From assembly GCA_018663245.1 (NCBI GenBank), contig JABJEI010000019.1:9129-73128 (forward strand): a DNA stretch of 64,000 nt, in the 5' to 3' direction. The DNA comes from a bacterium (GTDB taxonomy: Bacteria > Babelota > Babeliae > Babelales > JABJEI01). The position numbers and the translations under genes were made by a program. Positions 23,884 through 64,000 of this stretch are shown here, piece by piece. Positions within the stretch are counted from its first letter, which is position 1, and every line of letters begins with the position of its first letter. A model generated the notes under the pieces. The model worked only from the letters and a program-made list of their open reading frames with translations, had not been told where the DNA came from and searched no databases.

Positions 23884-23905
23884 GATTCCCTCTCTTGCAA
23901 ACGAC

Positions 23906-25336: not shown

Positions 25337-25483
25337 AAAAAACCGCTTAGCAGGCTTAAAAATATACCGACTGTAGTTTAACCAAGAGATGTTTGTGGAT
25401 CAAGGTTTTGCGCCTTTATCCATACTTTTTTGCTCTAATCAATCTCTTATGTTAAATAAATTTTCAATTAGAATTGATTTTCA

Positions 25484-25512
25484 TTGCAAAAACGGTGTAT
25501 ATGTTGTATAAT
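25484..25512 (+). promoter_or_regulatory. Near-consensus sigma70 promoter for the giant coiled-coil gene
   Basis: TTGCAA, 17-nt spacer, TATAAT. It lies inside the 5' extension of the tracked ORF, which argues for the downstream start at 25561. Confidence 0.6.
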
Positions 25513-25560
25513 AGATTTAATGGTATGGAGGTTTTAGAAAAGTTATTGATGGGTACCATA

Positions 25561-45577: not shown

Positions 45578-46264
45578 TCACGATAAACGGTTCTTTTTTA
45601 AAAAAATTCTATGAGCTAAAATCAGACAGACTGAAAGCGAAATTGGGTGGTGATAAGCCCATAGTGCCAATCGTTTTATTAACGAGGCTCGACCCGCTAA
45701 ATTGCGGGATCTAAGGGTGCTTTGTAGTAGATTAAAGCTGCAAGAAAGGCTGTTCATTAAGCGTGGAAGTGGTTTGTTGATGTTTGTTTTATAAATATTT
45801 ATTAGATGTTTGTTTGGAGTAAGTTTGGTAGACGTCCCATTTAGTTCGTCGATAAAAGTTATGTAAATTGCCTTGAGAACTATACAGAATTCTTTGAGAA
45901 TTGTAACCTCTTGGTCGAGGTCGCTGCCTACACCATTTTTTTTATAAATTCTCCAACAATCAATGACGGGCATGTAGCTAGTGAATCGCATCATGCGACA
46001 CACGCACCAACGAACAAGATCATTTTGGAACATGATATCGGCTCGGGGTTGTATGTTTTTGGATGGGATGCTTGTCCACGTGCAATAGTCTGCAATTCGT
46101 GAATCTAGGAACGCTTCGAGATTGTTGATCTGTCGACCAATTACACGGAAAGCCTTGATAATGTCTTGATGGGTCTCGGTGTATCGAATTGGCTGACCGT
46201 TAAGTTCTGTGGCACACACAAGAATTATTGTAGCGTACAGAATTGCCTTGTGGAACCGGTTCAT
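45578..46264 (-). CDS. Orphan secreted protein (228 aa)
   Basis: Signal peptide MNRFHKAILYATIILVCATELNG. No recognised motif. Confidence 0.6.
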   Translation of the reverse strand: MNRFHKAILYATIILVCATELNGQPIRYTETHQDIIKAFRVIGRQINNLEAFLDSRIADYCTWTSIPSKNIQPRADIMFQNDLVRWCVCRMMRFTSYMPVIDCWRIYKKNGVGSDLDQEVTILKEFCIVLKAIYITFIDELNGTSTKLTPNKHLINIYKTNINKPLPRLMNSLSCSFNLLQSTLRSRNLAGRASLIKRLALWAYHHPISLSVCLILAHRIFLKKNRLS

Positions 46265-46361
46265 GACAAGTGCCTAGTCTTTTAAATCTTTGGCGACCAT
46301 TCAATGAAATGTACCACATATAGGGTATAAAAAGATATTCTTTTACAAATGATGTAGGGGG

Positions 46362-47252
46362 CTAAATTTTGTATGAAAAGCCACCAACTTTTTGTAGGAG
46401 ATAGCCTGCAATAGGCTGCCATAATTTTTGAGTAATTGTTGGTTGTGCAAATCTCTCTAGTGAACCATATAGATCGATAGGTTCATTAGTTATGTATTCA
46501 TATTTATCGCTAGAGTTACTAGAAGCGTTTGATATTAATATGTCATAAAATGGCGTCCCCCGAAATAGCTGGGCAAGTATCATTGAAGCTTTTGGTATAG
46601 ATTTTTGATAAAGTGACGACCCATAAAATAGCTGGGCAAGTAGCGTTCGTGTTGCGATTACACCTAATAAAAGGCCAGCTTTACGAGTGAGCAAACTTTG
46701 CATGCTGATTGGCTTTTTTTGTAATCTACGTAGTAGTACTTCTGTGAGGCAAATAGCGATGAACGATGCGATAGGCTTCTTGAGCATGTAGCGTGTTCCT
46801 GTGCGTAGCTCTTCGCCGTTGTGCAGCTGGTTGTCGCTATATTTGTCTCCGATATCAGACTTTCCTTGTAGCAAAAAAGTTATTTCGGATGCTATTAGCA
46901 ATTGGATGGCCATTTTAGACAGGTTATTTTTTGGATTTTTCCACAATGGGTCTATTTTTGTTGGGTTCTGAAATAGCTTGCGTCTAAGTAATTTATGATT
47001 TATCACCTTGTGCCATACCAAATTAACAAGCAGCTTATACCATGCTATTTTAACACCTTTAAAAGCGGATCGCGCAATCAAGTCGAAAATAAATTGATTG
47101 AAAAAAATTTGGCTTCGCTTTGCCGTTCTTTGGACAATGTTAAGCGGTTTTGCAAGTTGGTTTAGCTGAGTTGGTAATTTTGGTGCAGTAAAAATGCTTG
47201 GCGTAAAGCCAATACTGGTAGCAAGTAATAGTGAAAGTATTCTTTGTTTCAT
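46362..47252 (-). CDS. Orphan secreted protein (296 aa)
   Basis: GGAGG lies 5 nt upstream of the ATG at 47252. Signal peptide MKQRILSLLLATSIGFTPSIFTA. Confidence 0.62.
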   Translation of the reverse strand: MKQRILSLLLATSIGFTPSIFTAPKLPTQLNQLAKPLNIVQRTAKRSQIFFNQFIFDLIARSAFKGVKIAWYKLLVNLVWHKVINHKLLRRKLFQNPTKIDPLWKNPKNNLSKMAIQLLIASEITFLLQGKSDIGDKYSDNQLHNGEELRTGTRYMLKKPIASFIAICLTEVLLRRLQKKPISMQSLLTRKAGLLLGVIATRTLLAQLFYGSSLYQKSIPKASMILAQLFRGTPFYDILISNASSNSSDKYEYITNEPIDLYGSLERFAQPTITQKLWQPIAGYLLQKVGGFSYKI

Positions 47253-47398
47253 GGCAACCTCCAAGTCCCCAAGTCTCCGATATATTTCTTGAGCGAACTA
47301 ATGTACGCCTATATATTATTATGGACTATTTGGCAATTTTGTCAAGTTGAGCATAAAGCAAGGGCCTGGAAATAACTCCAAGCCCTTGAGATAGTTTT

Positions 47399-48055
47399 TT
47401 AGGAAATGTTGTACAAGTAAGCGAGTGCTTTACGAGTAACGATTTGACTTACAGCAGTCAAAGCGCGACCTGTAACATTTATATCGCCTCCAAGTAGGCA
47501 GCCTTTTACAGTAACTCCGCTAGCGAATTTACTGATAGGTCTCCAGACTGAGTTAGTCTTACCAAGTTCGCTTTCAGGCGAAATTCCTGCAGCCCAGAAA
47601 GATGACTTGCGGCAGTGGAAGTCTATTGCATTAGTTATAAATATAGGTGCTATGGCGTCTTTTGCTTCTTTTATGAGCAGGCTTCCAAATGTTTTATTAT
47701 TTAGGGATAGCATGTTCTCTACAACAACAGCGGGAAGAACCCTTATTGCTATAGCTGCAAGTGTGCTCTTTAATAGCACCGGGCCAAGAACGTCGGTTAC
47801 TGCGATAGGCGAAAAGCGTAAACGCATCCACAAACGCTGCTTAAACGGCGGTAATTCTTTTTTCTCTTCGACTACTTCTTGTTGTTGGGCGCCAGTGTCA
47901 CCATTTGGGGTTGTAGTCTCTAGTTGGGCAAAATGCTTTAAAACTGTGCGAGCGCTTGAATTTTGAGGTGTAACACCTTGTATTGCGGGAGGTGTAGCCA
48001 CAATTGGGCCAAAAGCAGTTAATGCAAAAAATAAGGAAAGTAAAAGCTTTTTCAC
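47399..48055 (-). CDS. Orphan secreted protein (218 aa)
   Basis: GTG start with AGGGGA Shine-Dalgarno sequence. Signal peptide MKKLLLSLFFALTAFGPIVA. Confidence 0.6.
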   Translation of the reverse strand: MKKLLLSLFFALTAFGPIVATPPAIQGVTPQNSSARTVLKHFAQLETTTPNGDTGAQQQEVVEEKKELPPFKQRLWMRLRFSPIAVTDVLGPVLLKSTLAAIAIRVLPAVVVENMLSLNNKTFGSLLIKEAKDAIAPIFITNAIDFHCRKSSFWAAGISPESELGKTNSVWRPISKFASGVTVKGCLLGGDINVTGRALTAVSQIVTRKALAYLYNIS

Positions 48056-48226
48056 GAAATCCCCTAATTAGTTAAAGTGTCCTTAAGATTATATATATAA
48101 TTATTATATAACTAAATGCATATTTGGTCAAAATAACTTTAATAAGTGGCTTTAGTTTAGCCCCTTATAATCCCATATTTTTACAAAAAGCTTTATCTAA
48201 TTTTAATGCTTTTTTCCAAACTCTTC

Positions 48227-48830
48227 TTGCATCTATACTTTAATACTTTTGCGACTCGTCTTTGCTGTAGCTACGCCGTCACAGGTTTTTAAACTACCTT
48301 TTAATAAATCCCTGTCATCCTCGCGAATGCGGGGATCCAGTCTTTAAATAGATCATTTGATCACCTTTTGCATCTATACTTTAATACTTTTGCGAGGGGT
48401 TGCTCACCCAACCCCTCGCGGACAAGGGTGCCGGGGGAACCCCTGGGCCCCGGCGTGCGTAACTTGAAACCTCGAGCTAAAGCTCTGCAGTTTCTTCAAC
48501 AGAGCGCACTCAACTGAATTATTTATTTTTAGATGGCTTGGCCAAGACAAGGATGGCATGCATCCGTCTTCGCCTAAAAAACGCCTCCCTTGCCTGGCCT
48601 GCGAAGCCTTTGGCGAAGACGGGTCATCCCCGGCTTTGAACGGGGATCCAGTTTTTCAGTAGCTCATTTGAATGTCTGAGAAAGGTTTCTAGATATTTTT
48701 AGACTTTTGCATATTTACTATGAAGTTGCACTTAACGGATAATAGCTTTAGTCCTGGATCCTTGCATGCCATCCTTGTCGCGGCGTAGATGTAGCGAAGA
48801 CGGATTAAGCGATGTCGGGCGAAGTTCGCA
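48227..48830. repeat. Largest cluster of the dispersed modular repeat family
   Basis: Direct repeat cttgcatctatactttaatacttttgcga at 48227 and 48367. Hairpin 1 at 48392-48419. Hairpin 2 at 48431-48446. Units gtcatcctcgcgaatgcggggatccag (48314-48340) and gtcatccccggctttgaacggggatccag (48623-48651). Internal inverted pair 48541-48562 / 48768-48790. Confidence 0.85.
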
Positions 48831-48843
48831 GAACGAAGACTGA

Positions 48844-49548
48844 TTAGATGATTAGCGAAGGATTGCCATCAGTGTCGATATACCAGTTGATTGTAGGCTT
48901 ATCTAGCAGCGGCTTGTAGACAAACAAGTCGTTAAAATCATTCAGATCTTGCGACTGGTCTTCTTGGTTGATGATTTTATACTCTCTGAGCGCAAGTCTT
49001 TTTGCTCGCTCATTATAGTATGCATATAGGAGGCGTGGGAGCTTTTGGAACAAGGCTAAACTTGCTGTTTCAATAACCGCACCTAACACTATATTTTGTT
49101 TTATCCCAGACGTAAACGCTACTTTTAGACTCGAACGTTTACAGATAGCGATTGTAACATTTTTGACCGTAGTCCAAACGAGTTGGCCGCCTACTTGCAT
49201 CGGTATTAACAGTAGGCTTTGTTCTCGATCAACAACAGCAAGGCCAATCTTGCCAAGTGGCCTGGCAAAGGGCTTTATTTTAGCTAGTGGCGCGACTAGC
49301 TTAGAAAGTTGGCTTGGTTTTTTTGCAGCGAGGGCTTTTGTGGCGCCTACTATTTTAGTTGTAGGTGTCGTGCTTTTTATTTTTACACCCAAGTATTTTT
49401 TTGCCAAGTTCGCAGCGGCTAACTCGGCCCCTGTCATAATAAGGCGCCCAGTAAGTCCTGGTCCGTTATCGGCATAAACTGGAAGGTGCGCGCCGAGTAG
49501 GCACGCACCAAGAAAGATTGAGGCAATTGGTTTTAATAATCGTTGCAT
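48844..49548 (-). CDS. Orphan secreted protein (~234 aa)
   Basis: Signal peptide MQRLLKPIASIFLGACLLGAHLPVYA. Ala/Lys-rich. Confidence 0.6.
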   Translation of the reverse strand: MQRLLKPIASIFLGACLLGAHLPVYADNGPGLTGRLIMTGAELAAANLAKKYLGVKIKSTTPTTKIVGATKALAAKKPSQLSKLVAPLAKIKPFARPLGKIGLAVVDREQSLLLIPMQVGGQLVWTTVKNVTIAICKRSSLKVAFTSGIKQNIVLGAVIETASLALFQKLPRLLYAYYNERAKRLALREYKIINQEDQSQDLNDFNDLFVYKPLLDKPTINWYIDTDGNPSLII

Positions 49549-49565
49549 TGGCACCAGGTTCGCGG

Positions 49566-50297
49566 TTAAGTAGTTCCTAATAAGTTACTGTTTTTACCGT
49601 CCTTTTTTGGCTCAATGCTTTTAAGTTTAGCATTTTCTTCAACTTTTGGCTCGCGCAGTTTTTCGTAGGCTTTGCGCATTGGAACCAGCATAAACCTAAC
49701 ACCAATCGTGCAGCCGGTTTTAATGGCTGTGCTTTTTAGCTTATCTATGCCGAAATCAGATTCTGTGGCAGCTGACACGATAAACCGTATAATTGCAAAT
49801 TTAGCAAGCTTGCCGAGTTGTTTGTGCGTTATGTATTCAAATGACTTAAGCTCTTTTTTAATATCGGAATCTCTGTTCCATGGCGAGATCTTCCTAATGG
49901 ATAATTCAACTTCATCGCCAGGTATGCCAGCGATAACATTTATAAGCGTGTCGTTAATTATACCTGAATAATCCCGCTTTTCTCTAAATCCAAAGTATTT
50001 CAGTGCAGCGCTAGCAGTGATTCTCTCTGTAGCTGATATAGCAAATGCAAAGAGTGTTCTGGCGGGTACACGCTTGAAAATACTAGGACGTTCTTTTGTT
50101 CCAAAAAAGTAATCCTTGGCACCGCCGTCAATCAAGTTTAGGGGGTTTAGGCGCGATGCCCAGCTCGCCCGCTTTACTTGCGCTAGCGAGTCATTTTTGG
50201 CAACTGCAGCAACGTGTGCGTGTAGTCCAAGTAAGCAAATGGCGGCACTGGTTAGAATAATTCTTTGTTGTAGGTTCTTCATAAACTTTTTGTTCAT
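49566..50297 (-). CDS. Orphan secreted protein (243 aa)
   Basis: Signal peptide ..RIILTSAAICLLGLHAHVAA. No recognised motif. Confidence 0.6.
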   Translation of the reverse strand: MNKKFMKNLQQRIILTSAAICLLGLHAHVAAVAKNDSLAQVKRASWASRLNPLNLIDGGAKDYFFGTKERPSIFKRVPARTLFAFAISATERITASAALKYFGFREKRDYSGIINDTLINVIAGIPGDEVELSIRKISPWNRDSDIKKELKSFEYITHKQLGKLAKFAIIRFIVSAATESDFGIDKLKSTAIKTGCTIGVRFMLVPMRKAYEKLREPKVEENAKLKSIEPKKDGKNSNLLGTT

Positions 50298-50337
50298 CCT
50301 TTATGATGACTTAGGGTTTGGTACTATGTTAGCTTTT

Positions 50338-50940
50338 TTAATTTTCTTTAAGTTTTTTCAGCGCCAGCTCGTACAGTACGTTAAATCGATTTTTTATGCT
50401 CTCTAGAACGAGCCTGTGAGCCTTCTTTAGGACTGGATGTGTAACTTTTAAACTATCGTCTTCTAATTTATCGAGAATCTGGTCATTGAATTTAAGCGCT
50501 GCGACACTTTGTCCACAAATCAGCTCTGCATCTTTGTCGCTACGCATTTGTAGAGGCAGAAATGCATTTTTGGCATACACAACTAAAAAGTGCCGCATTT
50601 TATCCTCGTCTACGAGTTCGGACATGGCAAAAGATAGGGCGAGCTTTTCTCGAGAGATGGGTTTGCTTGCTTCAACATTGCTACTAATCTTGTTTAGGGC
50701 CCAGGCAACTGCTGCCACTTCGATTGGCGCCCATACCTGAGAATCTAATTTTAATTCATTTAAACGCTTTTTTGACGCCTTAAGACGCATTTTTAGATAA
50801 GTGCTTGAGAGAGCAATAGACTCTTCATAGAGTTTTTCTTGATTGTTAATAGCATTCTGGGATTTAGCTGAACATACCATAGGCAGGGCAAGCAAGATCG
50901 AAAAGGCCAATTCGTGAAAAGTTATCTGTTGTAGGTGCAC
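50338..50940 (-). CDS. Orphan secreted protein (~200 aa)
   Basis: AAGGAG lies 6 nt upstream of the GTG at 50940. Signal peptide ..FHELAFSILLALPMVCSA. Confidence 0.58.
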   Translation of the reverse strand: MHLQQITFHELAFSILLALPMVCSAKSQNAINNQEKLYEESIALSSTYLKMRLKASKKRLNELKLDSQVWAPIEVAAVAWALNKISSNVEASKPISREKLALSFAMSELVDEDKMRHFLVVYAKNAFLPLQMRSDKDAELICGQSVAALKFNDQILDKLEDDSLKVTHPVLKKAHRLVLESIKNRFNVLYELALKKLKEN

Positions 50941-51144
50941 TATCAACTCCTTTGTTAGCTGGACGTGGCATCTTGCTACAGTATTAAGCCTGTGGAGGCT
51001 AATGTAGCATCGATTGTTGAGCTATAAGCATGATATGGAAGATGTTTTTGTCAAGTAATGTAGCATGAAACATGCGCAGAAAGGCAATAATGTTACTAGA
51101 GGCTCAGGGGTAATAACTCAGAGCCTCTTACTTGGATAAGCTTC

Positions 51145-51612
51145 TTAAACTTCTTCTGTCATTATCGAGCTGCGCTCGCCAAGTAAAATCTCGCGCTCAT
51201 TAAGCAGCATATTGTGCTTTAGCAGTTCTATTGAGAGTCTCAGCTTTATTCCACCAAGTTTATCATCATGTATGAGTGACTCTTGTTTGACGGTGCTTTC
51301 GGTGTCTAATTTCGCTTTTTCAACGCATAACGTATATAGCTTGTCGTTGATATTACGCTTCTCCTCCAATACTTTATCAGTTATTTCAAGTATTTCTGGA
51401 ACTTTATTAATAATCTGAGGCAAGCGCGCTTTAATGCTTTTTAACATTGCTTCGCGTAGCTCCACTGACGCAAGCCTCTCCAAGCCAGCTGTTATAGCAA
51501 TTAAGCGCTCAGTTTTGGTCTCGTCGAGATAGGCATTAGTCTTGCCGATCTCGGCAAGGGTGCCGGCAGTTGCCAGTAGTAGGCCGTACAGGGCTATTTT
51601 AGTGTATTTCAT
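51145..51612 (-). CDS. Orphan secreted protein (155 aa), helical
   Basis: Signal peptide MKYTKIALYGLLLATAGTLA. Confidence 0.6.
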   Translation of the reverse strand: MKYTKIALYGLLLATAGTLAEIGKTNAYLDETKTERLIAITAGLERLASVELREAMLKSIKARLPQIINKVPEILEITDKVLEEKRNINDKLYTLCVEKAKLDTESTVKQESLIHDDKLGGIKLRLSIELLKHNMLLNEREILLGERSSIMTEEV

Positions 51613-53037: not shown

Positions 53038-54948
53038 TTACTCTTCGCTAACCTCTGCATCAATAGGACCATCTTCAGATGATGTAGATTCATCCTTAGA
53101 AGCCGCATCAGGTGCAGATTCGTCGCCCGGCTTTTGTTCAGCCGCTTTTTCTTTATACAGTATCTCTGCAATCTTGTGCGATGCTTCAAGCAGTTCATTC
53201 ATTGATGCTTCAAGTTTGCCCGCATCTTCAGAATGTTCTTTCAGGTCTGCCTTGGCTTTTTCAATAGCCGACTCAACCTTTGTTACTTCTTCAGCTGGTA
53301 GTTTTTCTTTGCTCTCTTTGACAGTTTTTTCAACTTCAAGGATAACGCCGTCAAACTTGTTACGCTTTTCTATAAGTTCACGAGCCTTTTTATCTTCAAC
53401 TTCGTGCTCTTGCGCATCTTTAACCATCTTTGCAATTTCATCTTCTGACAATCCGCCAGAATCAGATATTGTTATGTTTTGCTCTTTGCCGGTTGCCTGG
53501 TCTTTAGCAGACACACTTACAATACCGTTAGCATCGATATCAAAAGTCACTTCAATTTTAGGAACACCACGTGGTGCCGCAGGAATTCCATCGAGCTTAA
53601 ACTCACCCAAAATCTTGTTGTCACGAGCAAACTCACGTTCACCCTGGCCTACACGAATATCAACAATAGTCTGATTGTTATCAGCAGTACTGAAGACTTC
53701 AGATTTTTTGGTAGGGATAGTTGTATTACGCTCAATCAGCTTGGTCATTACACCGCCCTGAGTTTCAATACCTAACGAAAGCGGAGTTACGTCAAGCAGA
53801 AGCACATCAGAAACGTCACCAGCTAATACACCACCCTGCACAGCTGCACCAACCGAGACGACCTCGTCTGGATTAACTGATTTGTTAGGTTCTTTGCCAA
53901 AAATCTCTTTTACCAGCTCAGAAATCTTTGGAATGCGGGTTGAACCACCAACCAAGAGTACTTCATCAATCTGACCGGAAGACATTCCCGCATCGCTTAA
54001 AGCTTTTTTACAAGGAATAGCTAATCGCTCAAAAATATCTGCACACATCGACTCAAGTTTTGCACGAGAAAGCTTCACAACTAGGTGCTTTGGACCGCTT
54101 GCATCTGCAGTAATATAAGGAAGATTAATGTCGGTCTCTTGCGTGCTTGAGAGCTCAACTTTTGCTTTTTCTGAAGCTTCACGCAAGCGTTGTAGCGCCA
54201 TGCGATCTTTTGACAGATCAACACCCTGCTCTTGCTTGAATGTAGCTATAAGATGATTAATCAAAAGACGATCAATGTCATCACCACCAAGATGCGTATC
54301 ACCACTGGTAGACTTAACTTCGATAACGCCATCATGAATGTCCAAAATGGAAACATCAAATGTACCGCCACCAAAGTCAAAAACAGCAATTATACCGTTC
54401 TTTTTCTTATCCATGCCGTACGCAAGCGCTGCTGCGGTTGGTTCATTAATAATTCGCTTAACATCCAAACCAGCAATTTTACCGGCATCTTTGGTTGCTT
54501 GACGCTGTGCATCGTTAAAGTATGCAGGAACAGTCACAACGGCCTCTTTAACCGTCTGACCAAGGTAACCCTCTGCAACTTGTTTCAGTTGAGAAAGCAC
54601 CGCTGCAGAAATTTCTTGAGGGGAGTATTCTTTACCCTGAGCAACAATGCCAATATCGCCGTTAGAGCTACGAACTACTTCGTATGGCAACCCAGACAGC
54701 TCGCCCTTGAGTTCGTCGTAGCGAGAGCCGATAAAGCGCTTTGCTGAGTAAATTGTGTTCTCTGGATTGGTAACAGCTTGGCGTTTTGCCTGTACGCCGA
54801 CCAAGCGCTTGCCATCTTTAGTAAAAGCAACAACGGACGGAGTCGTATTTTGACCTTCCTCGTTTACTATAACTTTGGCCGTGCCACCTTCCATAACCGA
54901 AACAACAGAGTTGGTTGTTCCTAAATCAATTCCTATAATTTTGCTCAT
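53038..54948 (-). CDS. dnaK: Molecular chaperone DnaK (Hsp70)
   Basis: [37 protein letters not shown], and a C-terminal lid with an acidic tail. GGGGA Shine-Dalgarno sequence before the ATG at 54948; the tracked ORF has a 33-codon non-homologous extension. Confidence 0.97.
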
Positions 54949-55160
54949 ATTTATCCCCAAATATTGTTCACGTTGATTAAATAATATGTCCACTATTTCA
55001 GTAATTATTCTAACCCTGGACTCAACAGGTGTCAATATGACGCTCATATTTTCTTAGTGCAACTGACTCACATTAATAGCAACTCTTGCCTGCAAGTTGC
55101 CGCCGTATCTATACTTAAATTCAGAAAGAGTTTTATTTGCCACATGCCGTAGGAACCATT

Positions 55161-56387
55161 ATGAAAAGATTTACCCTAGCACTTCTAGCCAGCCTATGCC
55201 TTACAACTACCAACCTAGAAACCTACCCCCCTTACACGATCAACCTCCCATCGCTCGTGCCCAACGCACATGCATCAACCGGAAGTCCTTATGCATACCT
55301 TGGATTCAACGGAAATCGCGGAGGCTCTAGTCGGCTTATTTTGGGCATTGAAAATAAGATTCGCGAAAGCAGGCACAATTCAAAGCTGGGCAAATCACAC
55401 TCTGAGCCAAAAAGTCTTAATATTAAACAGCTCGATGATAATCGGCCCAAACCTCGCAAAACGCAGTCAACCGGAAACATAAACAGCGAACAAGAGCTAA
55501 CCATCACAATGCCTGAAACACTTTATCGCATTACAAGGCACACCAAGCTGCTCGACGCAACGGTAGACCAAACTCACGTCATCAGCCCACAACTTGGCGT
55601 TAACAACATTCTGCTTGTCGCCCGCATGGAGCCATTGAATAAGTGTAGGTTCTCGAAGGCTATGGTTAACAACATCGAATACTACCTAGCGCAAGAGCTA
55701 AATAAGGCCCTTGCAGCACTTGACTCACAATCAATCAAAAAAGATGCCCACAGCTACCACTCACTCACAGGGCTCAATCAAGAGAATATCGCCCTGGTCA
55801 CAAAAGAAATCCAAAAAGCGATGCTTAAGGTCCACAAAGAGGCTCTCAAAACCTACAAACAACGATTTCGTTCAAAAGGTAGCTACTCAACATACGTTGA
55901 AGGCGTAAGCCTGACAGCAGCAGTAGCACACAACAACCAACTGTACACAGTCCAGGTCGGGAGAACAGATCAAGTTGCAGTCATCGCTACGCACAAAGAT
56001 AAACTGCTTAATGCTCCAAGCAAACGCGGCAACAACTGGAAGCGCCTTGGACGGCGCAACGGCGAAAACCCCGAGGTATATGTTGCCAATGTACCGCTCG
56101 ATTCAGATCAGCCTATAACCATTTCAATCGTTGACTTGACGAGTATAAAACTGTCCACAGCAATAGATCTAACCAAGCAATACGAAGAGAAATCAGAAAC
56201 AAAAGTTGCAGCTAAAAAACTCCTTGAACTCGACCCGTACGCCATTATTGTTCGCGCACAAGCAAACACCGTAGACCGCAAGTATTCTGTAAAAAAAGAA
56301 ACCTTTTGGAGTCGGCTTAAAGCCTGGTGGAATAACAGAAGAAATCACAGTACTAGCAGCGTAAAGTATATCCACAACCTTAGTTAA
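55161..56387 (+). CDS. Hypothetical secreted protein (408 aa)
   Basis: Signal peptide MKRFTLALLASLCLTTTNL. One segment (GVSLTAAVAHNNQLYTVQVGRTDQVAVI) resembles the PP2C GTTA..V..L.VANVGDSR strand pair but lacks the catalytic Asp, so it is not called. Confidence 0.6.
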   Translation: MKRFTLALLASLCLTTTNLETYPPYTINLPSLVPNAHASTGSPYAYLGFNGNRGGSSRLILGIENKIRESRHNSKLGKSHSEPKSLNIKQLDDNRPKPRKTQSTGNINSEQELTITMPETLYRITRHTKLLDATVDQTHVISPQLGVNNILLVARMEPLNKCRFSKAMVNNIEYYLAQELNKALAALDSQSIKKDAHSYHSLTGLNQENIALVTKEIQKAMLKVHKEALKTYKQRFRSKGSYSTYVEGVSLTAAVAHNNQLYTVQVGRTDQVAVIATHKDKLLNAPSKRGNNWKRLGRRNGENPEVYVANVPLDSDQPITISIVDLTSIKLSTAIDLTKQYEEKSETKVAAKKLLELDPYAIIVRAQANTVDRKYSVKKETFWSRLKAWWNNRRNHSTSSVKYIHNLS

Positions 56388-56400
56388 AATTAGCACAAAT

Positions 56401-56458
56401 AAGGCTGGTTAACAGCGAGGGGCGCCTTTTCGGACGCCCCTCGCTGTTAACCAGCCTT
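56401..56458. terminator. 58-nt near-perfect palindrome; bidirectional terminator between the 408-aa gene and fibre gene A
   Basis: 24-nt arms aaggctggttaacagcgaggggcg / cgcccctcgctgttaaccagcctt plus 2 more bp around a 5-nt loop. The right arm includes the fibre-gene stop codon. Confidence 0.7.
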
Positions 56459-59400
56459 ATTTGTCTTTTTTATCCTTCTTAAGTTCTTTGCGAAGGTCGT
56501 CTATCTGCGCTTGCATATCTTCAAATCTCGCTTGAACACCCTCATAACGCTCCTTCATATCTTCATTATCATTGCTCAATTCTTGAACAGCCTTAATAAG
56601 TGGCGTAACCAATTCTGCGTAACAAATACTATAATAACCCAATTCAGAATTTGGACGATTCACTGCAAAATCTGGGTGACCATGCCGCATTGCCACCTCA
56701 TCAAGCTCTTGCCCTATCAAACCGTACCTTTGTTTATCACCTTCACCTGCAATAAGGTGATAGCTAACGGTATTTAAATCATTAATAAACTCTAGGCCTA
56801 AATTAGATGGCTCGATATCGCGCTTCAAACGTTTATCAGAAGAAGCGGCCCATGCTGTTGCCCCATTTGTCAGCTTTACACCACCACTTGTATTGCTAAC
56901 CTCAAGCTCATCATCTCCAGAGTCGTACCACATTCCAACGTCAACTCCGTTAGTAAAGGAATAAGCTGGTGTTGATATGGTTCCATCCGTAGCACGCACA
57001 TAACCACTAGCACCATTTAAGGTCAAAACTCCAACAGAACTTAATGCCATTTTTTCTGTTGAATGCGTTGCTCCAACGGCAGTCTTAAATGACAATTTAG
57101 TCGCATGATCGGAACCGGTGTGCCTACTCTCTGCAACAGCCTCAATCGCAGCAACATCATGCTCTCCCAAGCTTTCAGCTGGCGTGTAAAAATCAATAAT
57201 ACCTATCTTATCATCAACCCTAATGTCCGACTCTCCACTGTAAAATCCCAAATATGCTGGCGAATCGTCTCCTGAAGCAGTGTGCTTTATTATTAAGCCC
57301 TTATCAGGATCATGAATAAGACGAACTTCACTATCGGCACCAAACCGAATCACAGAGTTATCTGAACCCAGAACAATGTCATCTACAAATGTCACAACTC
57401 CATCTGAAGCTATAGTCATTGCTGTGGCAGCATTAGCAGAACCAATTGTTCCACCATCCTTGATCTTTATATCGTCAACAAAGGCCACAATACCATCTGA
57501 AGCTATAGTTATTGAACTCGTAGCGCTGGCAGAACCAATTGTGCCGGCATCAGGAATCACTATCGAGCCGCTACCACCATTTAGTGTCAAAACACCAACC
57601 GAGCTTAAAGCCATTTTTTCTGTTGAATGCGTTGCTCCAGCTGCAGTTTTAAACGACAATTTAGTTGCATGATCTGAACCTGTATGCCTACTTTCTGCAA
57701 CAGCCTCAATCGCAGCAACATCATGCTCTCCCAAGGTTTCAGCTGGCGTATAAAAATCAATAATACCAATCTTGTCATCAACTCTAATGTCCGACTCTCC
57801 ACTATAAAAACCCAAATATGCAGGCGAGTCGTCTCCTGAAGCTGTATGCTTTATTATCAGGCCCTTATCAGGATCATGAACAAGATGAACTTCACTATCG
57901 GCACCAAAACGAATAACAGAATTATCTGAACCCATAACAATGTCATCAACAAATGTCACAACTCCATCTGAGGCTATAGTCATTGCTGTATCGGCACTGG
58001 CTGAACCAATCGTTCCACCATCTTTAATTTTGATATCATCGATAAAGGTTGCGATGCCATCCGAAGCTATAGTTATTGCAGCAGAAGTAGTGGCCGAACC
58101 AATCGTTCCGCCATCAGGAATTACTATCGCCCCACTGCTACCATTCAATGTAAGCACGCCGGTTGAGCTAAGCGACATCTTCTCTGCCGCAGCCTCAGAT
58201 GCCGCTGTTTTAAACGACAACTTAGTAGGATTATTTGTAGCGCCAAAAGTAGCCTCTGCAACAGCTTCAATCCCGGCCGCAACCAACACAGCATCCGCCC
58301 CTGTTTCACCTATTGCCTGAAAATCAACTACGCCAATTTTATCATTAACAGCAACAATTGCTTCATCACTTTGGAGGGTAAGAGAAACAGGCTTTGCCGC
58401 ACCTGTAGCAGCATGCTTTAATATAAGACCCTTATCAGCGTTATGAGCAAGCTCAACTTCTTGGTCATTGCCAAAATAGATGACGCCACCATCGGCTAAG
58501 TACAAGTCACTCCACTCAAGACTAGCGCTACCCAAAGCCGCTGAATCAGCCGAAGCCGGTGCTAAAGCACCAGTAAATGTAATACCATCAGAGAAAGTCA
58601 CAATTCCGTCAGAAGCTATAGTTATTGCAGCAGGAGTAGTCATCGAGCCAATCGTTCCACCATCCTTAATCTTGATATCATCGACAAAAGTTACAATGCC
58701 ATCCAAAGCGATTGCTATTGCTGTAGCAGCGCTAGTTGAACCGATCGTTCCACTATCTTTAATTTTGATATCATCGACAAAGGTTACGATGCCATCAGAA
58801 GCTATAGTTATTGCAGCAGAAGTAGTGGCCGAACCAATCGTTCCGCCATCAGGAATCACTATCGCCCCACTGCCACCATTGAGCGTAAGCACACCGATTG
58901 AACTAAGTTTCATCTTCTCAGCGGCAGCTTCTGATGCTGCTGTTTTGAATGACAGCTTGGTAGGATTATTTGTAGCGTCAAAGGTAGCTTCTGCAACAGC
59001 TTCAATCCCGGCAGAAACTAGAACAGCATCAGCTCCTGTTTCACCTATTGCCTGGAAGTCAATGACACCGATTTTATCGGAAGCATCAATAATTGCCTCA
59101 TTACTTTGGAGGGTAAGATATACAGGCGTGTTCGAACCCGAAGCAGCGTGCTTTAATATAAGACCCCTATCAGCAACATGGGTTAAGGTAATTTCTTGGT
59201 CACTACCAAAATATACAATCCCACCATCTGCTAAAAACAGATCACTCCACTCAAGGCTAGCGCTACCCAAAGCCGCACCATCTGCCGAAGCCGGCGCTAA
59301 AGCACCAGTAAATGTAACACCACCAGAACCAGACTTAAGTGCAACTTGTGTTGTACCGTTTGTATTACCTATAGTAATCGTTCTATTAGCCGCACCTGTA

Positions 59401-60134
59401 CCAATATTAATGGCCTGAGCATCCGCATCGTTACCTACATTAATTGCACCACTAGTAGAGTTCAAAGACATAGCACCGGTACAATCAAGATCTATTGTCG
59501 TTGCAGAAGACAGCGTTGTTGTACCTGTTCCACCAAGCACAAATGATGCAGTTCCGTCAGTAAGAGTCAAAGCGTCACCCGACGTAAGCGTGATAGCTGT
59601 TGAAGTAGCTGTAAATGCAGTGTTACCTGGGGAACCAAGCGCCAATGTTCCAGTGCCGTGAGGGTATATCGTTATGTTTTCATTGTCAGCAATGGTGGCA
59701 ATACTAATATCACTTGTAGTATTAATATGCCATCTACTACCCAATAGCGAACGTGAGTATGCATTTAAATTATCGCTAACAATACGCAAAACTGCGTCAT
59801 CTTCGATGCAGTCATGATGATTCTGAAGCAACTCCTGACAGCCATCAATAGCATCCAAAAGAACTTCCATTTCTATCATATGCTTGCCACGTTTAACGCA
59901 TTCAAAAAGCTCGCTAACAGCTTCTGGAATCTCGAGACCGCGACAAGCACGTTCTAGAACCATAACAGCTGGAGCTATATCAGAACCATCAGGCAGAACC
60001 AAGCAAATCTTGCATGAATAGTAATCACTAAATGAATTGTATGAATCCGAACCTTGTACAGCCTTTAATAGTCCTACCGGAAGCAAAAACGATACCAACA
60101 ACAATGCTCTTATTGTACGCGCCGCTGTCTTCAT
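56457..60134 (-). CDS. Secreted repeat-rich fibre protein A (1,225 aa) with C-terminal Peptidase S74-like intramolecular chaperone domain
   Basis: AAGGAG Shine-Dalgarno sequence. Signal peptide MKTAARTIRALLLVSFLLPVGLLKAVQG. Gly/Thr/Ala/Ile-rich beta-type repeats. C-terminal 128 aa start with SSDKRLKRDI..GL.FINDL..VSY......YGLIGQELDEV (Ser-x5-Lys dyad spacing as in endosialidase/tail-fibre chaperone domains) and end in a coiled-coil tail. Confidence 0.85.
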   Translation of the reverse strand: MKTAARTIRALLLVSFLLPVGLLKAVQGSDSYNSFSDYYSCKICLVLPDGSDIAPAVMVLERACRGLEIPEAVSELFECVKRGKHMIEMEVLLDAIDGCQELLQNHHDCIEDDAVLRIVSDNLNAYSRSLLGSRWHINTTSDISIATIADNENITIYPHGTGTLALGSPGNTAFTATSTAITLTSGDALTLTDGTASFVLGGTGTTTLSSATTIDLDCTGAMSLNSTSGAINVGNDADAQAINIGTGAANRTITIGNTNGTTQVALKSGSGGVTFTGALAPASADGAALGSASLEWSDLFLADGGIVYFGSDQEITLTHVADRGLILKHAASGSNTPVYLTLQSNEAIIDASDKIGVIDFQAIGETGADAVLVSAGIEAVAEATFDATNNPTKLSFKTAASEAAAEKMKLSSIGVLTLNGGSGAIVIPDGGTIGSATTSAAITIASDGIVTFVDDIKIKDSGTIGSTSAATAIAIALDGIVTFVDDIKIKDGGTIGSMTTPAAITIASDGIVTFSDGITFTGALAPASADSAALGSASLEWSDLYLADGGVIYFGNDQEVELAHNADKGLILKHAATGAAKPVSLTLQSDEAIVAVNDKIGVVDFQAIGETGADAVLVAAGIEAVAEATFGATNNPTKLSFKTAASEAAAEKMSLSSTGVLTLNGSSGAIVIPDGGTIGSATTSAAITIASDGIATFIDDIKIKDGGTIGSASADTAMTIASDGVVTFVDDIVMGSDNSVIRFGADSEVHLVHDPDKGLIIKHTASGDDSPAYLGFYSGESDIRVDDKIGIIDFYTPAETLGEHDVAAIEAVAESRHTGSDHATKLSFKTAAGATHSTEKMALSSVGVLTLNGGSGSIVIPDAGTIGSASATSSITIASDGIVAFVDDIKIKDGGTIGSANAATAMTIASDGVVTFVDDIVLGSDNSVIRFGADSEVRLIHDPDKGLIIKHTASGDDSPAYLGFYSGESDIRVDDKIGIIDFYTPAESLGEHDVAAIEAVAESRHTGSDHATKLSFKTAVGATHSTEKMALSSVGVLTLNGASGYVRATDGTISTPAYSFTNGVDVGMWYDSGDDELEVSNTSGGVKLTNGATAWAASSDKRLKRDIEPSNLGLEFINDLNTVSYHLIAGEGDKQRYGLIGQELDEVAMRHGHPDFAVNRPNSELGYYSICYAELVTPLIKAVQELSNDNEDMKERYEGVQARFEDMQAQIDDLRKELKKDKKDK
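57011..58138 (-). repeat. Two tandem 564-bp (188-aa) in-frame repeats inside fibre gene A
   Basis: Landmark gccattttttctgttgaatgcgttgctcc occurs at 57046 and 57610. The copies are roughly 90% identical by eye. Confidence 0.85.
58081..59330 (-). repeat. Two tandem 735-bp (245-aa) in-frame repeats inside fibre gene A, containing 93-bp (31-aa) sub-repeats
   Basis: Landmark gcagaagtagtggccgaaccaatcgttccgccatcagg occurs at 58081 and 58816. The 31-aa unit D(G/S)GTIGS...ITIASDGIVTFVDDIKIK is repeated three times around 58590-58850. Confidence 0.85.
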
Positions 60135-60276
60135 GAACTCTCCTTTGTATCCTATTTTTTAACAAAGTCACATTATAAGAAACATAAAAATAGAGCAATA
60201 GCTTTATGTTTCTGTGTAAAAGCGCAAGAAAATATTGTAAATCACGAGTTCATTGTCAAAATAAACCACCGGAGCC

Positions 60277-60351
60277 CGGTTTAAGGCCTGGTGGAATAAT
60301 AGAAGAAATCACAGTACTAGAAGCGTAAAGTATATCCACAACCTTAGTTAA
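60277..60351 (+). pseudogene. Relic copy of the last 25 codons (including stop) of the 408-aa gene
   Basis: cggtttaaggcctggtggaataatagaagaaatcacagtactagaagcgtaaagtatatccacaaccttagttaa compared with 56313-56387 shows a few substitutions. No upstream ORF is attached. Confidence 0.85.
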
Positions 60352-60366
60352 AATTAGCACACAAAA

Positions 60367-60388
60367 GGGGCGCCTTTTCGGACGCCCC
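60367..60388. terminator. Terminator hairpin after fibre gene B (truncated copy of the 56401-56458 palindrome)
   Basis: ggggcgcc-ttttc-ggacgcccc. The outer 18 nt of the left arm are absent here. Confidence 0.65.
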
Positions 60389-60404
60389 TCGCTGTTGACC
60401 AGCC

Positions 60405-63400
60405 TTATTTGTCTTTTTTATCCTTCTTAAGCTTTTTACGCAGGTCGTCTATCTGCGCTTGCATACTTTCATATTGCGCTTGAACGGCCTCATAACGTGT
60501 TTGCATGTCTTCATACATTACTTGTGTATCTTCAGACCTGCTACTTAACTCCTGAACAGACCTTATCAGTGGAGCTATTAAGCTCGAATAAGCAACGCCA
60601 TACTTTTCGGACTCGCCACCAGGACGGTGAATTCCCGCAAAGTCAGGATGCCCATGCCGCGTTACCACCTCTTCAAGCTCTTGAGCAATTAAGCCATACG
60701 ATGCTTTAGGATTTTTACCAGAAATTCTACGGTAACTAACAGGGTTTAAATCATTGATAAAATCAAGACCCAAATCCGACATCATGATATCGCGCTTTAA
60801 GCATCTATCAGAAGACTCAAAGAAGCCTGTCGAACTGTAAACAGCAGACCAACCAGCTGAAGAGCTTCCAGACTTATAAAGGTTATCACCGGAAGGTAAA
60901 ACATCACTTCTAACCGTAATCGTATCAACCGCGGTATCACCGATGTCCATCATTTTAGTTAACGTACCGTCTGTCCGGGCTGTGTAAAAAATCAAAGAAC
61001 CATCCTCAGCTCCGCTTGTTGCTGTTTTTACCTTAGCCTCAACTCTTGCAAACTCTTGGTTGTTTTGTAGCGTATCATCAGCATAAAACTCAATTGTACC
61101 TGACAAGTCACCAGCTGCACCAGCTGCACCCTTATCCATCACAAAACGGAACTTGGCCGCTGCTGTGTCGTTGGTTGTGTTTTTCAACTCAAACAATGGT
61201 TTTGATGCTGTAGCACTATCGATAATTACCGATGGCGTTGTAGCAAGTACGGCAACCGTCGAGGTAAAGTCAACTGTTGGCGCAACCACATCAAGCTTTG
61301 TATCAGCATCAATATCTAATTGACCGTCAGCGCTTGAAGCTATTGAAATCGCTGAATCTCGGAACTGCAATGCCATAGCGTCATTCAAGCGAACACCCGT
61401 GTCAGCAATATGAGTTAGCTTTACATCCTGATCATTGCCCAAGTTTATAACACTACCATCAGCTAAGAACAGGTCGCTCCATTCAAGGGTTGCTGAGCCA
61501 AGTGCCGCAGCATCTGCTACCGAAGGAACAACACTACCTTTAACTGTCAGAACACCGGTTGAACTGAGCGACATCTTCTCTGCCGCAGCTTCTGATGCTG
61601 CTGTTTTAAACGACAGCTTGGTTGCATTGTTAGCAATTCCAAACGTTCCTTCTGAAACCGCTTCAATACCAGCTGCGATCAAAATTGCATCTGTTCCACC
61701 CGCCTCATCTGGCGCTTGGAAGTCTATTGCGCCAATTACATCACTGACCACAACCGCAGTTGAACCTGTCTGAAGTGTAAGGATCATCGGTGTATTAGCA
61801 GCTGTAGCAACACGCTTGAAGTCAAGCCCATCAGTTGCAGAGTCATGAGTTATCGTCGCATCTGAAGTAGCACCAAAACTTAGAACTGCACTATCTGAAG
61901 CCAAGGAAACATCATCGCCAACCCAAAGATCAGCTGCAACACCAAGGCCACCACCAACTGTCAAAGCACCTGTAGTCGAAGAGCTTGATGCTGTTGTAGC
62001 AGTCACAGCAACTACACCACCCGAGGATATAGAAATCGCATCTGGATCACCAGCAGAACCAATGGTTCCCGCATTCTTGATGAGAACATCATCTACAAAT
62101 GTTACTACTCCATCAGAAGCTATAGTTATAGCAGCAGGAGTAGTGGCCGAACCAATCGTTCCGCCGTCTGTAATTTTCAATGCTACTACACCATCAGAAG
62201 CTATAGTTATGGCATCAGTTGTGCCAACCGAACCAATCGTTCCACTATTGGGAATTATTATCGAACCACTGCCACCATTAAGTGTAAGTACACCGGTTGA
62301 ACTAAGCCTCATTTTTTCTGCGGCGGCTTCTGATGCTGCTGTTTTAAATGATAACTTGGTAGCATTGTTGGCCGCACCAAATGTTCCTTCTGAAACCGCT
62401 TCAATACCAGCTGCGATCAAAATTGAATCTGTTCCACCGGCCTCATCAGGCGCTTGGAAATCTATGGCACCAATAACATCACTTGCCACAACCGCCGTTG
62501 ATCCAGTTTGCAAGGTAAGAATCATTGGCGTGTTAGCACTTGTAGCAACACGTTTGAAGTCAAGGCCATCAGTTGCAGTGTCATGAGTTATTGTTGCATC
62601 TTGCGTATTACCCAAGCTTATTGCTGCACCATCGGCTAAGAATAGATCGCTCCACTCAAGGGCCGCACTGCCCAATGCACTACCATCGGCTGAATTTGGC
62701 GTTAATGCACCACCAACCTTCATTGCGCCGCTTACGTTCACCTCTGAGGAGGCGTTAATGTCAACTGTTGGCGCAGTTATTTCAATTTCTGTATCTGCAT
62801 CAATATCAAGTTGTCCATCTGCGCTTGAGCTTATCTTTAATGCGCTATCGCGGAACTGAAGCTCTCTTGAGCTGTTGAGCAATAAACCAGTATCAGCTAC
62901 ATGTGTCAACGTTACATCTTGATCATTGCCAAAACCCAACACGGCACCATCACCAAGATACAGGTCGCTCCACTCAAGATCTGTTATTCCAAGTGAATAA
63001 GTGTTTGCATCTGAAGGAACAAGACTACCTCTAAAGGTGGCCATCAAGTTGCCAGACATCCCAAGATCCATCGTCAAAGTCTCGGTACCAGCTATCATAG
63101 TGTAGAAGGCTAAAGCACCATCTTCTGTTGTGCTTGTAGGATCTTTAATCCGAGCCTGAACACGAGCATACGTTGTCTGATTACTTGCTGAATCTTCACC
63201 GTCAAAATAAATACCTGCTAAGAAGTCATTAGCTGCTGGACTTGAACTGTTGTTATGCATCTTAACTTGAGGGTATGGGCCCGAACCACTGTCGCCAACC
63301 TGTGTAATTGCCATTCCACCAGTACCAAGATTTACGTTGACCGCTGTTGAACCGGTCGTATTACCAATAGTAATCGTTCGAGCTGCTGCACCTGTACCAA

Positions 63401-64000
63401 CATTAATGTTCTGCGCAACCGCATCTGTTCCGATGCCAATTGTTGACGCGGAATCAATTGTTAAAGCACCACCAGCATCTATATCAACTGTGCTGCTTGG
63501 AGTTATCGCAATGGTTGTCATGCCAGTTTCTGATAAAGCTCCTGCACCATCAAAGTCCAAGGTCGCAACATCATCACCGTATTTACTTACTCCAGCACCT
63601 TGCATGGTCAATGTACCGCTTGGTGTAACCGTAAAGTTAGTCATACCAGCTTCTGTTACAGCACCGGCACCATCAAAGTCCCAGGTTGCAACATCATCAC
63701 CGTACTTACTGACTCCAGCACCTTGCATGGTCAATGTACCGCTTGGCGTTACTGTTAAATTTGTCATACCAGTTTCTGTTACAGCACCGGCACCATCAAA
63801 GTCCCAGGTTGCAACATCGTCACCGTATACACTTGCTCCAGTACCCTTAACGCTCATCGTTGCGCCATCAATTGTAACTGCGCCTGTTGCATTCACATCA
63901 AAGGCTGCTGTAGCAATCTGAACTTCAGTATCGGCTGAAACATCTAATTGTCCATCTGCACTAGACCAAATTTTGAGAGCGCTATCACGGAACTGAAGTT
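60405..64000 (-). CDS. Repeat-rich fibre protein B (more than 1,198 aa; 5' end beyond the window) with C-terminal Peptidase S74-like chaperone domain
   Basis: The frame stays open to position 64000 (..LQFRDSALKIWSSADGQLDVSADTEV.. precedes the tracked GTG). Shares ALGSA.LEWSDL(F/Y)LADG, KLSFKTAASEAAAEKM.LSSTGVLT and GTIGS modules with protein A. C-terminal SSDRCLKRDI..GLDFINDL..VSY..YGLIAQELEEV. Confidence 0.85.
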   Translation of the reverse strand, partial: LQFRDSALKIWSSADGQLDVSADTEVQIATAAFDVNATGAVTIDGATMSVKGTGASVYGDDVATWDFDGAGAVTETGMTNLTVTPSGTLTMQGAGVSKYGDDVATWDFDGAGAVTEAGMTNFTVTPSGTLTMQGAGVSKYGDDVATLDFDGAGALSETGMTTIAITPSSTVDIDAGGALTIDSASTIGIGTDAVAQNINVGTGAAARTITIGNTTGSTAVNVNLGTGGMAITQVGDSGSGPYPQVKMHNNSSSPAANDFLAGIYFDGEDSASNQTTYARVQARIKDPTSTTEDGALAFYTMIAGTETLTMDLGMSGNLMATFRGSLVPSDANTYSLGITDLEWSDLYLGDGAVLGFGNDQDVTLTHVADTGLLLNSSRELQFRDSALKISSSADGQLDIDADTEIEITAPTVDINASSEVNVSGAMKVGGALTPNSADGSALGSAALEWSDLFLADGAAISLGNTQDATITHDTATDGLDFKRVATSANTPMILTLQTGSTAVVASDVIGAIDFQAPDEAGGTDSILIAAGIEAVSEGTFGAANNATKLSFKTAASEAAAEKMRLSSTGVLTLNGGSGSIIIPNSGTIGSVGTTDAITIASDGVVALKITDGGTIGSATTPAAITIASDGVVTFVDDVLIKNAGTIGSAGDPDAISISSGGVVAVTATTASSSSTTGALTVGGGLGVAADLWVGDDVSLASDSAVLSFGATSDATITHDSATDGLDFKRVATAANTPMILTLQTGSTAVVVSDVIGAIDFQAPDEAGGTDAILIAAGIEAVSEGTFGIANNATKLSFKTAASEAAAEKMSLSSTGVLTVKGSVVPSVADAAALGSATLEWSDLFLADGSVINLGNDQDVKLTHIADTGVRLNDAMALQFRDSAISIASSADGQLDIDADTKLDVVAPTVDFTSTVAVLATTPSVIIDSATASKPLFELKNTTNDTAAAKFRFVMDKGAAGAAGDLSGTIEFYADDTLQNNQEFARVEAKVKTATSGAEDGSLIFYTARTDGTLTKMMDIGDTAVDTITVRSDVLPSGDNLYKSGSSSAGWSAVYSSTGFFESSDRCLKRDIMMSDLGLDFINDLNPVSYRRISGKNPKASYGLIAQELEEVVTRHGHPDFAGIHRPGGESEKYGVAYSSLIAPLIRSVQELSSRSEDTQVMYEDMQTRYEAVQAQYESMQAQIDDLRKKLKKDKKDK
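63470..63840 (-). repeat. Three tandem 123-bp (41-aa) repeats in fibre gene B
   Basis: Landmark ccagcaccttgcatggtcaatgtaccgcttgg occurs at 63592 and 63715. Encoded unit: GAGVSKYGDDVATWDFDGAGAVTE.GMTN.TVTPSGTLTMQ. Confidence 0.8.

Follow-up and report, generated by a model that had tools for sequence, protein, structure and literature searches.

A tandem array of signal-peptide-bearing, phage-type fibre genes on the chromosome of a marine Dependentiae bacterium

Organization of the fibre array

At one end of the 64,000-nucleotide stretch of contig JABJEI010000019.1 analysed here (the window), two adjacent minus-strand genes encode long, repetitive, fibre-like proteins: f1, which is complete, and f2, whose frame stays open to the window edge (Table 1). 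An earlier reading made from the DNA letters alone (the sequence-only reading) had singled out these two genes and placed both correctly, but a system of two was an undercount, as the pair belongs to a tandem array of five or more paralogous fibre genes on the chromosome of a marine member of the Dependentiae (TM6). The same reading had allowed for a phage tail module just past the window edge. Inspection of an 88-kb ENA contig, L001, which is 99.8% identical to the window across the overlap and extends beyond position 64000, and of further contigs revealed no such module and, in its place, the rest of f2 and the remaining members of the array, giving the order f5, a gene for a DUF1028 protein, f4, f3, f2, f1, an orphan gene in the opposite orientation and dnaK. 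Only one contig, Ga0209045_1000185 from JGI (80 kb), spans f5; at the first covered base (61352), its reading frame has run for 3,290 codons without reaching an end, so the upstream survey ends within f5.

The locus was recovered repeatedly. Sixteen independent contigs, drawn from ENA, NCBI and JGI, carry the identical f1 protein gene with unchanged neighbours and an identical f1-dnaK junction, so the f1 locus is not an assembly artefact. The f5-DUF1028-f4-f3-f2 order is repeated on seven contigs, and L001 links the f4 tail, f3, f2 and f1 through to dnaK. Contig ends commonly fall inside f2 or f5 because of the repeats in these genes, and gene length differs between assemblies: f2 encodes 2,378 amino acids (aa) on L001 (2594-9730) versus 1,241 aa on L006 (7813-11538), a difference of 3 x 379 aa or whole repeat blocks, and f4 encodes 908 aa on L011 (3238-5964) versus approximately 1,416 aa on L058 (10884-15197). 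Such differences in fibre length reflect either real, population-level variation in repeat number or collapse of repeats during assembly.

Expression and export signals accompany the genes. The Sec signal peptide and Shine-Dalgarno sequence that the sequence-only reading had recognized on f1 are both present: residues 1-28, read directly from the sequence, are MKTAARTIRALLLVSFLLPVGLLKAVQG, followed by SDS, and AGGAG stands 6 nucleotides from the ATG. Sec-type signal peptides are likewise present on f2, f3 and f4, and at the level of sequence these four proteins do not look cytoplasmic, an outcome that the same reading had considered. Directly 3′ of the f1 stop codon lies a terminator-like hairpin, and near-identical GC-rich hairpins follow f2 and f4; the three 3′ ends share the sequence GGGGCG(T/C)CCGAAA(A/C)GGCGCCCC. 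This near-identity suggests that the 3′ untranslated region was duplicated along with the genes, and the fibre genes thus look like duplicated units that are transcribed separately.

A separate observation concerns the DUF1028 protein encoded between f5 and f4. It carries a threonine directly past its likely signal-peptide cleavage site, which falls between TMQA and TWS. A residue so placed would be in keeping with an N-terminal-nucleophile hydrolase, and it is conceivable that the protein acts as an accessory to the fibres.

Table 1. Features of the fibre array; positions refer to the window unless a contig is named
Feature	Position	Strand	Details
f5 fibre gene	on other contigs than L001		>3,290 aa; S74 domain at end
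Secreted DUF1028 (PF06267) protein gene	L011 2292-3089; L058 10001-10798		between f5 and f4
f4 fibre gene (= P0004)			908 aa; N-terminus as in other paralogues, C-terminal domain non-S74
GC-rich hairpin after f4	L001 ~398-430		near-identical to that after f1
f3 fibre gene	L001 622-2430		602 aa; S74 domain at end; just past window edge
f2 fibre gene, full length	L001 2594-9730		2,378 aa; own signal peptide
f2 fibre gene, part in window	60405-64000	-	C-terminal 1,197 aa of the 2,378-aa protein; cut by window edge
f2 S74 domain	60408-60812	-	SDRCLK at 60795-60812
GC-rich hairpin after f2	~60367-60388		near-identical to that after f1
f1 promoter-like site	60231-60259	-	TTGACA-17-AATATT, 5′ of f1; consensus match only
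f1 Shine-Dalgarno sequence	60140-60144	-	AGGAG, 6 nucleotides 5′ of ATG
f1 fibre gene	56457-60134	-	complete; 1,225 aa; ATG start; open reading frame and translation; identical protein on 16 contigs
f1 Sec-type signal peptide	60051-60134	-	aa 1-28
f1 N-domain, predicted alpha-helical, presumed cell-proximal anchor	59715-60050	-	aa 29-140, ~110 aa; common to f1-f4 (four-paralogue alignment)
f1 proximal shaft	58875-59714	-	aa ~141-420; conserved in f1-f4, with marker motifs at identical positions 242 and 289
f1 repetitive distal shaft	57018-58874	-	aa ~421-1039; homologous to marine phage tail fibres
f1 pre-cleavage tip	56841-57017	-	aa ~1040-1098; would be the mature C-terminal end after S74 release; limits from alignment and by inference from the Bd3182 cleavage position (PMC10769870)
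f1 S74 domain and C-terminal helix	56460-56840	-	aa 1099-1225; PF13884; SDKRLK at 56823-56840
f1 terminator-like hairpin	56407-56452	-	20-bp stem; directly 3′ of stop

Domain composition of the fibre proteins

The first approximately 400-450 residues, comprising signal peptide, N-domain and proximal shaft, are common to f1-f4, and in a BLAST alignment the first 450 aa of f1 and f4 are 72% identical. The shaft that follows is built of repeats, with internal periods of 188, 245 and 31 aa in f1 and a repeat unit of 379 aa in f2, in which marker motifs recur three or four times. Together with the composition of f1 (A 12.7, G 10.3, S 9.6, T 9.0, D 8.7 and I 8.5%), these repeats bear out the initial description of the proteins as Gly/Thr/Ala/Ile-rich and highly repetitive. 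Towards the C-terminal end the paralogues diverge: their distal ends are diverse and their proximal ends conserved, and f4 carries a different, non-S74 domain of approximately 180 aa as its tip. A conserved base combined with varied tips and varied length is the pattern of receptor-binding proteins.

The shaft matched 1,477 metagenomic proteins, nearly all of them marine and some with Mtd_N or T4 gp9/10 domains. Among cultured phages, tblastn searches revealed similarity to the tail fibres of Roseobacter phage CRP-345 (38% identity) and of Pelagibacter phage Kolga. The top phage homologue, P0003 (43% identity), lies on a 189-kb contig next to genes for terminase, T4-type portal, Gp23 capsid and sheath, that is, in a T4-like phage genome. 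By homology, the shaft is clearly of bacteriophage tail-fibre type and of phage origin. We also scanned the shaft homologues for export signals using a heuristic: of the 120 matches listed, which besides the fibres described here are largely phage-like or of unknown context, 117 start with Met, and a signal-peptide-like N-terminus was found in two of these 117, f1 and f4.

At the C-terminus, a Pfam profile search bore out the S74 chaperone/autoprotease domain proposed in the sequence-only reading. Matches to PF13884 (Peptidase_S74) exceeded the curated cut-off of 22 bits in four of the five paralogues, with 38.8 bits for f1 (E 1e-9), 40.9 bits for f2 (E 3e-10; 39.9 bits for the full-length protein), 27.9 bits for f3 and 46.4 bits for f5, whereas f4, with its different tip, gave no PF13884 match. 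The Ser/Lys motif reads SDKRLK in f1, SDRCLK in f2 and SDRRVK in f5, and the Ser and Lys of the dyad are invariant in a 7-sequence alignment with metagenomic S74 fibres. The sequence-only reading had located the motifs of f1 and f2 exactly, but had given their spacing as Ser-x5-Lys; as the Lys stands at Ser+5, S-D-x-x-x-K is Ser-x4-Lys. The coiled-coil tail proposed for the same region agrees with the last approximately 50 residues of f1, which are predicted as one long helix, although only approximately 26 of them near the C-terminus have a predicted local distance difference test score (pLDDT) of >70. A C-terminal helix after S74 is common in IMG/VR relatives too and is thus not special to these genes.

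Further searches placed the C-terminal module among phage proteins. PHROG matches were to tail-spike and tail-fibre families and fell almost entirely at the C-terminal ends of the proteins, and the S74 module has at least 376 IMG/VR relatives, the most similar of which reach 46-47% identity. Its closest counterparts in cellular genomes belong to Paraglaciecola, Saprospiraceae and Bdellovibrionales. Compared with the PDB, a profile of the C-terminus gave weak matches to three phage fibres, 4uw8 (the T5 L-shaped tail fibre), 9vvr and 8jov (E 0.03-0.05), and a single-sequence phmmer search gave none. The YadA-type C-terminal beta-barrel anchor of trimeric autotransporter adhesins had no Pfam match in these proteins, the C-terminus of which is S74.

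Chromosomal S74 proteins of exported type were also seen elsewhere, at positions 6560-10483 of L014, a Bdellovibrionales metagenome-assembled genome, where the gene lies between argH and argG, and at positions 8612-10588 of L045, from an uncultured bacterium. Both proteins begin with an N-terminal signal or hydrophobic leader. These two examples suggest that exported S74 fibres are widespread outside phages.

In contrast to the shaft and the S74 module, the N-domain appears to be a newly seen, lineage-specific orphan. Its AlphaFold2 (AF2) model is mostly alpha-helical and of fair confidence, with a pLDDT of 79 and a predicted template-modelling score (pTM) of 0.70. No relatives beyond the paralogues were found in a word-indexed search of 5.8 billion proteins, in a complete HMMER search of 1.84 billion representative proteins, in 185,579 GTDB species genomes or in 2.9 million IMG/VR contigs, using a search profile built from two sequences and therefore of limited sensitivity. 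A fold search against the PDB and BFVD likewise gave nothing below E 0.4. The N-domain is a candidate for a new envelope-anchoring module.

Chromosomal context and host lineage

The window is chromosomal: it encodes DnaB, DnaN, RecF, ProRS, RecA, IF3, L35, L20, RNase Y, YmdB, MiaA, CarD, DnaK and an XerC/D-like recombinase, with orphans, many of them with signal peptides, making up approximately half of its genes. None of the housekeeping and orphan genes in the 56-kb flank matched a PHROG structural family, and we found no tail, baseplate or sheath genes either in these 56 kb downstream of the fibres or between the paralogues. The absence of a surrounding prophage noted in the sequence-only reading therefore holds, with 56 kb lacking structural genes on one side of the two genes and fibre paralogues on the other. 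At third codon positions, the GC content (GC3) of the fibre genes is 0.30-0.32 versus 0.34-0.42 in six sampled housekeeping genes, close enough that the fibre genes are not strongly foreign in composition.

A tyrosine recombinase gene at 22975-23922 (minus strand) was considered as a prophage integrase and rejected, the protein being XerC/XerD-like over its full length and its gene 33 kb away from the fibres. The protein matches PHROG 'integrase' families and is probably a chromosome-dimer resolvase.

Assignment of the organism to the Dependentiae (TM6) is well supported by its RecA relatives and by gene order. Five of the best 120 relatives of its RecA have an organism name attached, and four of these, with 67-71% identity, are assigned to Candidatus Dependentiae or Babeliales. 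A Dependentiae RecA contig carries twelve genes in the same order as the window at 43204-33324 (minus strand), namely miaA, a small orphan, a ppiD-like gene, recA, infC, the genes for L35 and L20, zapB, zapA, rny, ymdB and an EamA gene, with ankyrin-repeat genes adjoining. Seen on two Dependentiae-type contigs, L139 and L140, this twelve-gene order should be a useful synteny marker for the phylum.

All cultured Dependentiae are obligate parasites of protists (PMC6561590). Our literature search revealed no connection between Dependentiae and tail fibres, endosialidase or S74, and the paper on Chromulinavorax, the best-studied isolate, does not mention adhesins.

Other genes of the window are described here for completeness. 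Next to the fibre array, the longest dnaK open reading frame at 53038-55047 (minus strand) is, at 669 aa, probably 33 codons too long at its start: residue 34 is the first of the conserved stretch, and the protein called in other assemblies has 636 aa. Seven orphan proteins of 155-416 aa without family matches are encoded at 45578-51612 (minus strand) and 55137-56387 (plus strand); most have signal peptides or hydrophobic leaders, and they resemble secreted or membrane effectors of an intracellular parasite. A giant orphan open reading frame of 1,855 aa at 25474-31041 (plus strand) has no Pfam or PHROG match and lies in a stretch with strongly positive AT skew (0.30-0.34) and low GC content (0.37).

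Candidate function and comparison with known systems

Guided by the observed gene structure, domain composition, homologies, chromosomal context and taxonomy, we consider it moderately probable that the products of the array are Sec-exported, surface-held fibres of phage derivation that trimerize and cleave themselves through S74 and grip a host by variable tips. Signal peptides, chromosomal location and domain make-up all support the corresponding proposal of the sequence-only reading, which saw in the two genes chromosomally domesticated fibres exported by Sec. The build of the proteins is modular, with a Sec signal peptide, a predicted helical N-domain and a proximal shaft at the base, a putatively beta-rich repeat shaft, and a tip followed by S74, or by a different tip domain in f4. 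By analogy with characterized systems, a fibre protein would leave the cytoplasm via Sec and pass the outer membrane, and the C-terminal S74 domains of three chains would associate and template trimerization of the shaft from its C-terminal end. Next, cleavage before S1099 by the Ser/Lys dyad (S1099/K1104 in f1) would release the last 127 aa and expose the mature tip. We infer trimerization and cleavage from the established properties of S74 domains and of Bd3182 of Bdellovibrio. The N-domain would keep the displayed fibre attached to the cell envelope, and the different tips might let a small parasite bind structures on the surface of its host cell, which, by analogy with cultured Dependentiae, would presumably be a protist.

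Several points weigh against this interpretation. In f3 the motif reads SDKRLS, with the catalytic Lys replaced by Ser, and at least one paralogue thus may not cleave and may keep its chaperone domain. An AF2 monomer model of the last 192 aa, based on the 7-sequence alignment, reached a pLDDT of 43.7, too low for use, with only the terminal helix confident. No route across the outer membrane was identified. No S74 fibres were seen in other Dependentiae, in a genome scan that was pattern-based and narrow. Adhesion is argued by analogy only, and no cultured relative exists. Finally, a phage-derived module might lie upstream of f5, past the surveyed sequence.

We weighed four other explanations. 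The one that fares best, and which we nevertheless regard as unlikely, is that the fibres are structural and non-adhesive and take no part in host recognition: as a coat, either a fibrillar surface layer or a spacer, they could determine the size and buoyancy of the cell or shield it, for example, from being digested once taken up. Very long, repeat-rich shafts (up to >3,290 aa) of varying repeat number would suit such a coat, as would the shortness of the tip regions ahead of S74. However, diverse distal ends on conserved proximal ends form the pattern of receptor-binding proteins, and the characterized relatives, phage fibres and the fibres of Bdellovibrio, are adhesins.

Less likely still, the products might be secreted, tailspike-like depolymerases that degrade polysaccharides, namely surface glycans of a host or prey, with S74 in the role that it has in K1F endosialidase, that of a folding chaperone. 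The domain was originally defined from an enzyme, endosialidase, and PHROG 'tail spike' families do match the proteins, although at the C-terminus only. Searches of Pfam, NCBIfam and PHROGs revealed no glycosidase or lyase domain in any paralogue, and the bodies of the proteins match fibre shafts rather than beta-helix enzymes.

We give even less credence to the idea that the genes encode tail fibres of the usual kind, belonging to a prophage or to some particle derived from a phage, such as a tailocin, an extracellular contractile injection system (eCIS) or a gene transfer agent, with the structural genes located past f5 or at another place in the genome. Assembly of phage and eCIS particles is cytoplasmic and hence needs no export signal, whereas f1-f4 carry Sec signal peptides that the 115 other Met-starting shaft homologues lack. 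The idea draws on the clearly phage-type shaft and S74 modules, on a survey that reaches only into f5 and not upstream of it, and on a report of S74 domains in eCIS tail fibres (PMC8213781). Against it stand the arrangement as five tandem paralogues, each with its own terminator, the 56 kb without PHROG structural matches, the absence of the N-domain from the IMG/VR contigs searched and a base composition like that of host genes. Metagenomic mis-assembly of phage fibre genes onto a bacterial contig is hardly credible: contigs do often break at repeats inside f2 and f5, but the f1-dnaK junction recurs on independent contigs from three repositories, the order from f5 to f2 is repeated as described above, and L001 bridges the f4 tail through f1 to dnaK.

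If the products are indeed surface-held, phage-derived fibres, the locus provides concrete candidate host-recognition proteins for uncultured marine Dependentiae, a phylum in which host finding and entry are otherwise obscure. It would then be relevant to the entry of symbionts and parasites and to the domestication of phage parts, and the combination of a conserved base with variable tips and repeat number could mark host-range diversification in metagenomes. More tentatively, a Dependentiae lineage might have captured phage shafts and S74 modules, fused them to a newly evolved envelope-anchor domain and expanded them into a tandem arsenal of swappable tips that recognizes eukaryotic hosts, in convergence with Bdellovibrio. 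Phage receptor-binding hardware would in that event have been redirected from bacterial to eukaryotic targets.

Among known systems, the C-terminal chaperones of phages (K1F endosialidase, T5 pb1; PF13884) share with f1 the SDxxxK motif, the position at the extreme C-terminus and the helical tail. The proteins described here differ in having signal peptides, in being encoded away from virion genes and in an N-terminus that is not a phage adaptor domain. The fibres of marine phages (P0003, CRP-345, Kolga) have shaft repeats that are 37-43% identical over hundreds of residues; these phage proteins, however, are without a signal peptide, have different N-termini and mostly different tips, and P0003 belongs to a virion gene module, unlike the fibres of the array. 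The eukaryotic myelin regulatory factor MYRF offers a parallel in that a cellular organism has reused the phage S74 module for trimerization and self-cleavage (cited in PMC10769870), but MYRF lacks a fibre shaft and, as a membrane-bound transcription factor, has an unrelated function.

The closest counterpart is the mosaic adhesive trimer (MAT) family of Bdellovibrio bacteriovorus, which comprises 21 chromosomal paralogues with a signal peptide, a conserved N-domain of approximately 130 aa and a trimeric fibre (Caulton et al. 2024, PMC10769870). Thirteen of the 21 end in S74, with self-cleavage at the catalytic Ser demonstrated, for example, in Bd3182, and the S74-type fibres are Sec-exported and located on the predator surface (PMC10769870). 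As a concept, exported, S74-matured, phage-derived fibres have therefore been in print since 2024 (PMC10769870); the supplements of that paper do not mention TM6. Both systems are chromosomal families of several paralogues encoding proteins of approximately 1,000 aa, with a signal peptide, a conserved N-domain of approximately 110-130 aa, a long fibre and an SDxxxK S74 chaperone. Both include some non-S74 tips, here that of f4, with four of the five paralogues ending in S74, and the S74 module of the array is 35% identical to that of the MAT-type Bdellovibrionales protein on L014. The N-domains set the two apart, as that of the array is predicted to be alpha-helical, whereas the MAT N-domain is described as beta-rich, and comparison with the L014 N-domain gave no sequence similarity (E 0.9). 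Judged by sequence and model, the array thus lacks one of the features that define MAT membership. It also differs in its shaft repeats of marine phage tail-fibre type, in its tandem arrangement, with one member of >3,290 aa, and in its owner, a member of the Dependentiae, the cultured members of which parasitize protists, as opposed to a predator of bacteria. New in the array relative to MAT are the novel N-domain, the phylum and, probably, a eukaryotic target. If our interpretation is correct, the array would be a second example in which a parasitic or predatory cell has put the tail-fibre and S74 modules of phages to new use as exported fibres, probably independent of MAT because the N-domain differs, which would suggest that the solution found by Bdellovibrio is a recurrent evolutionary strategy.

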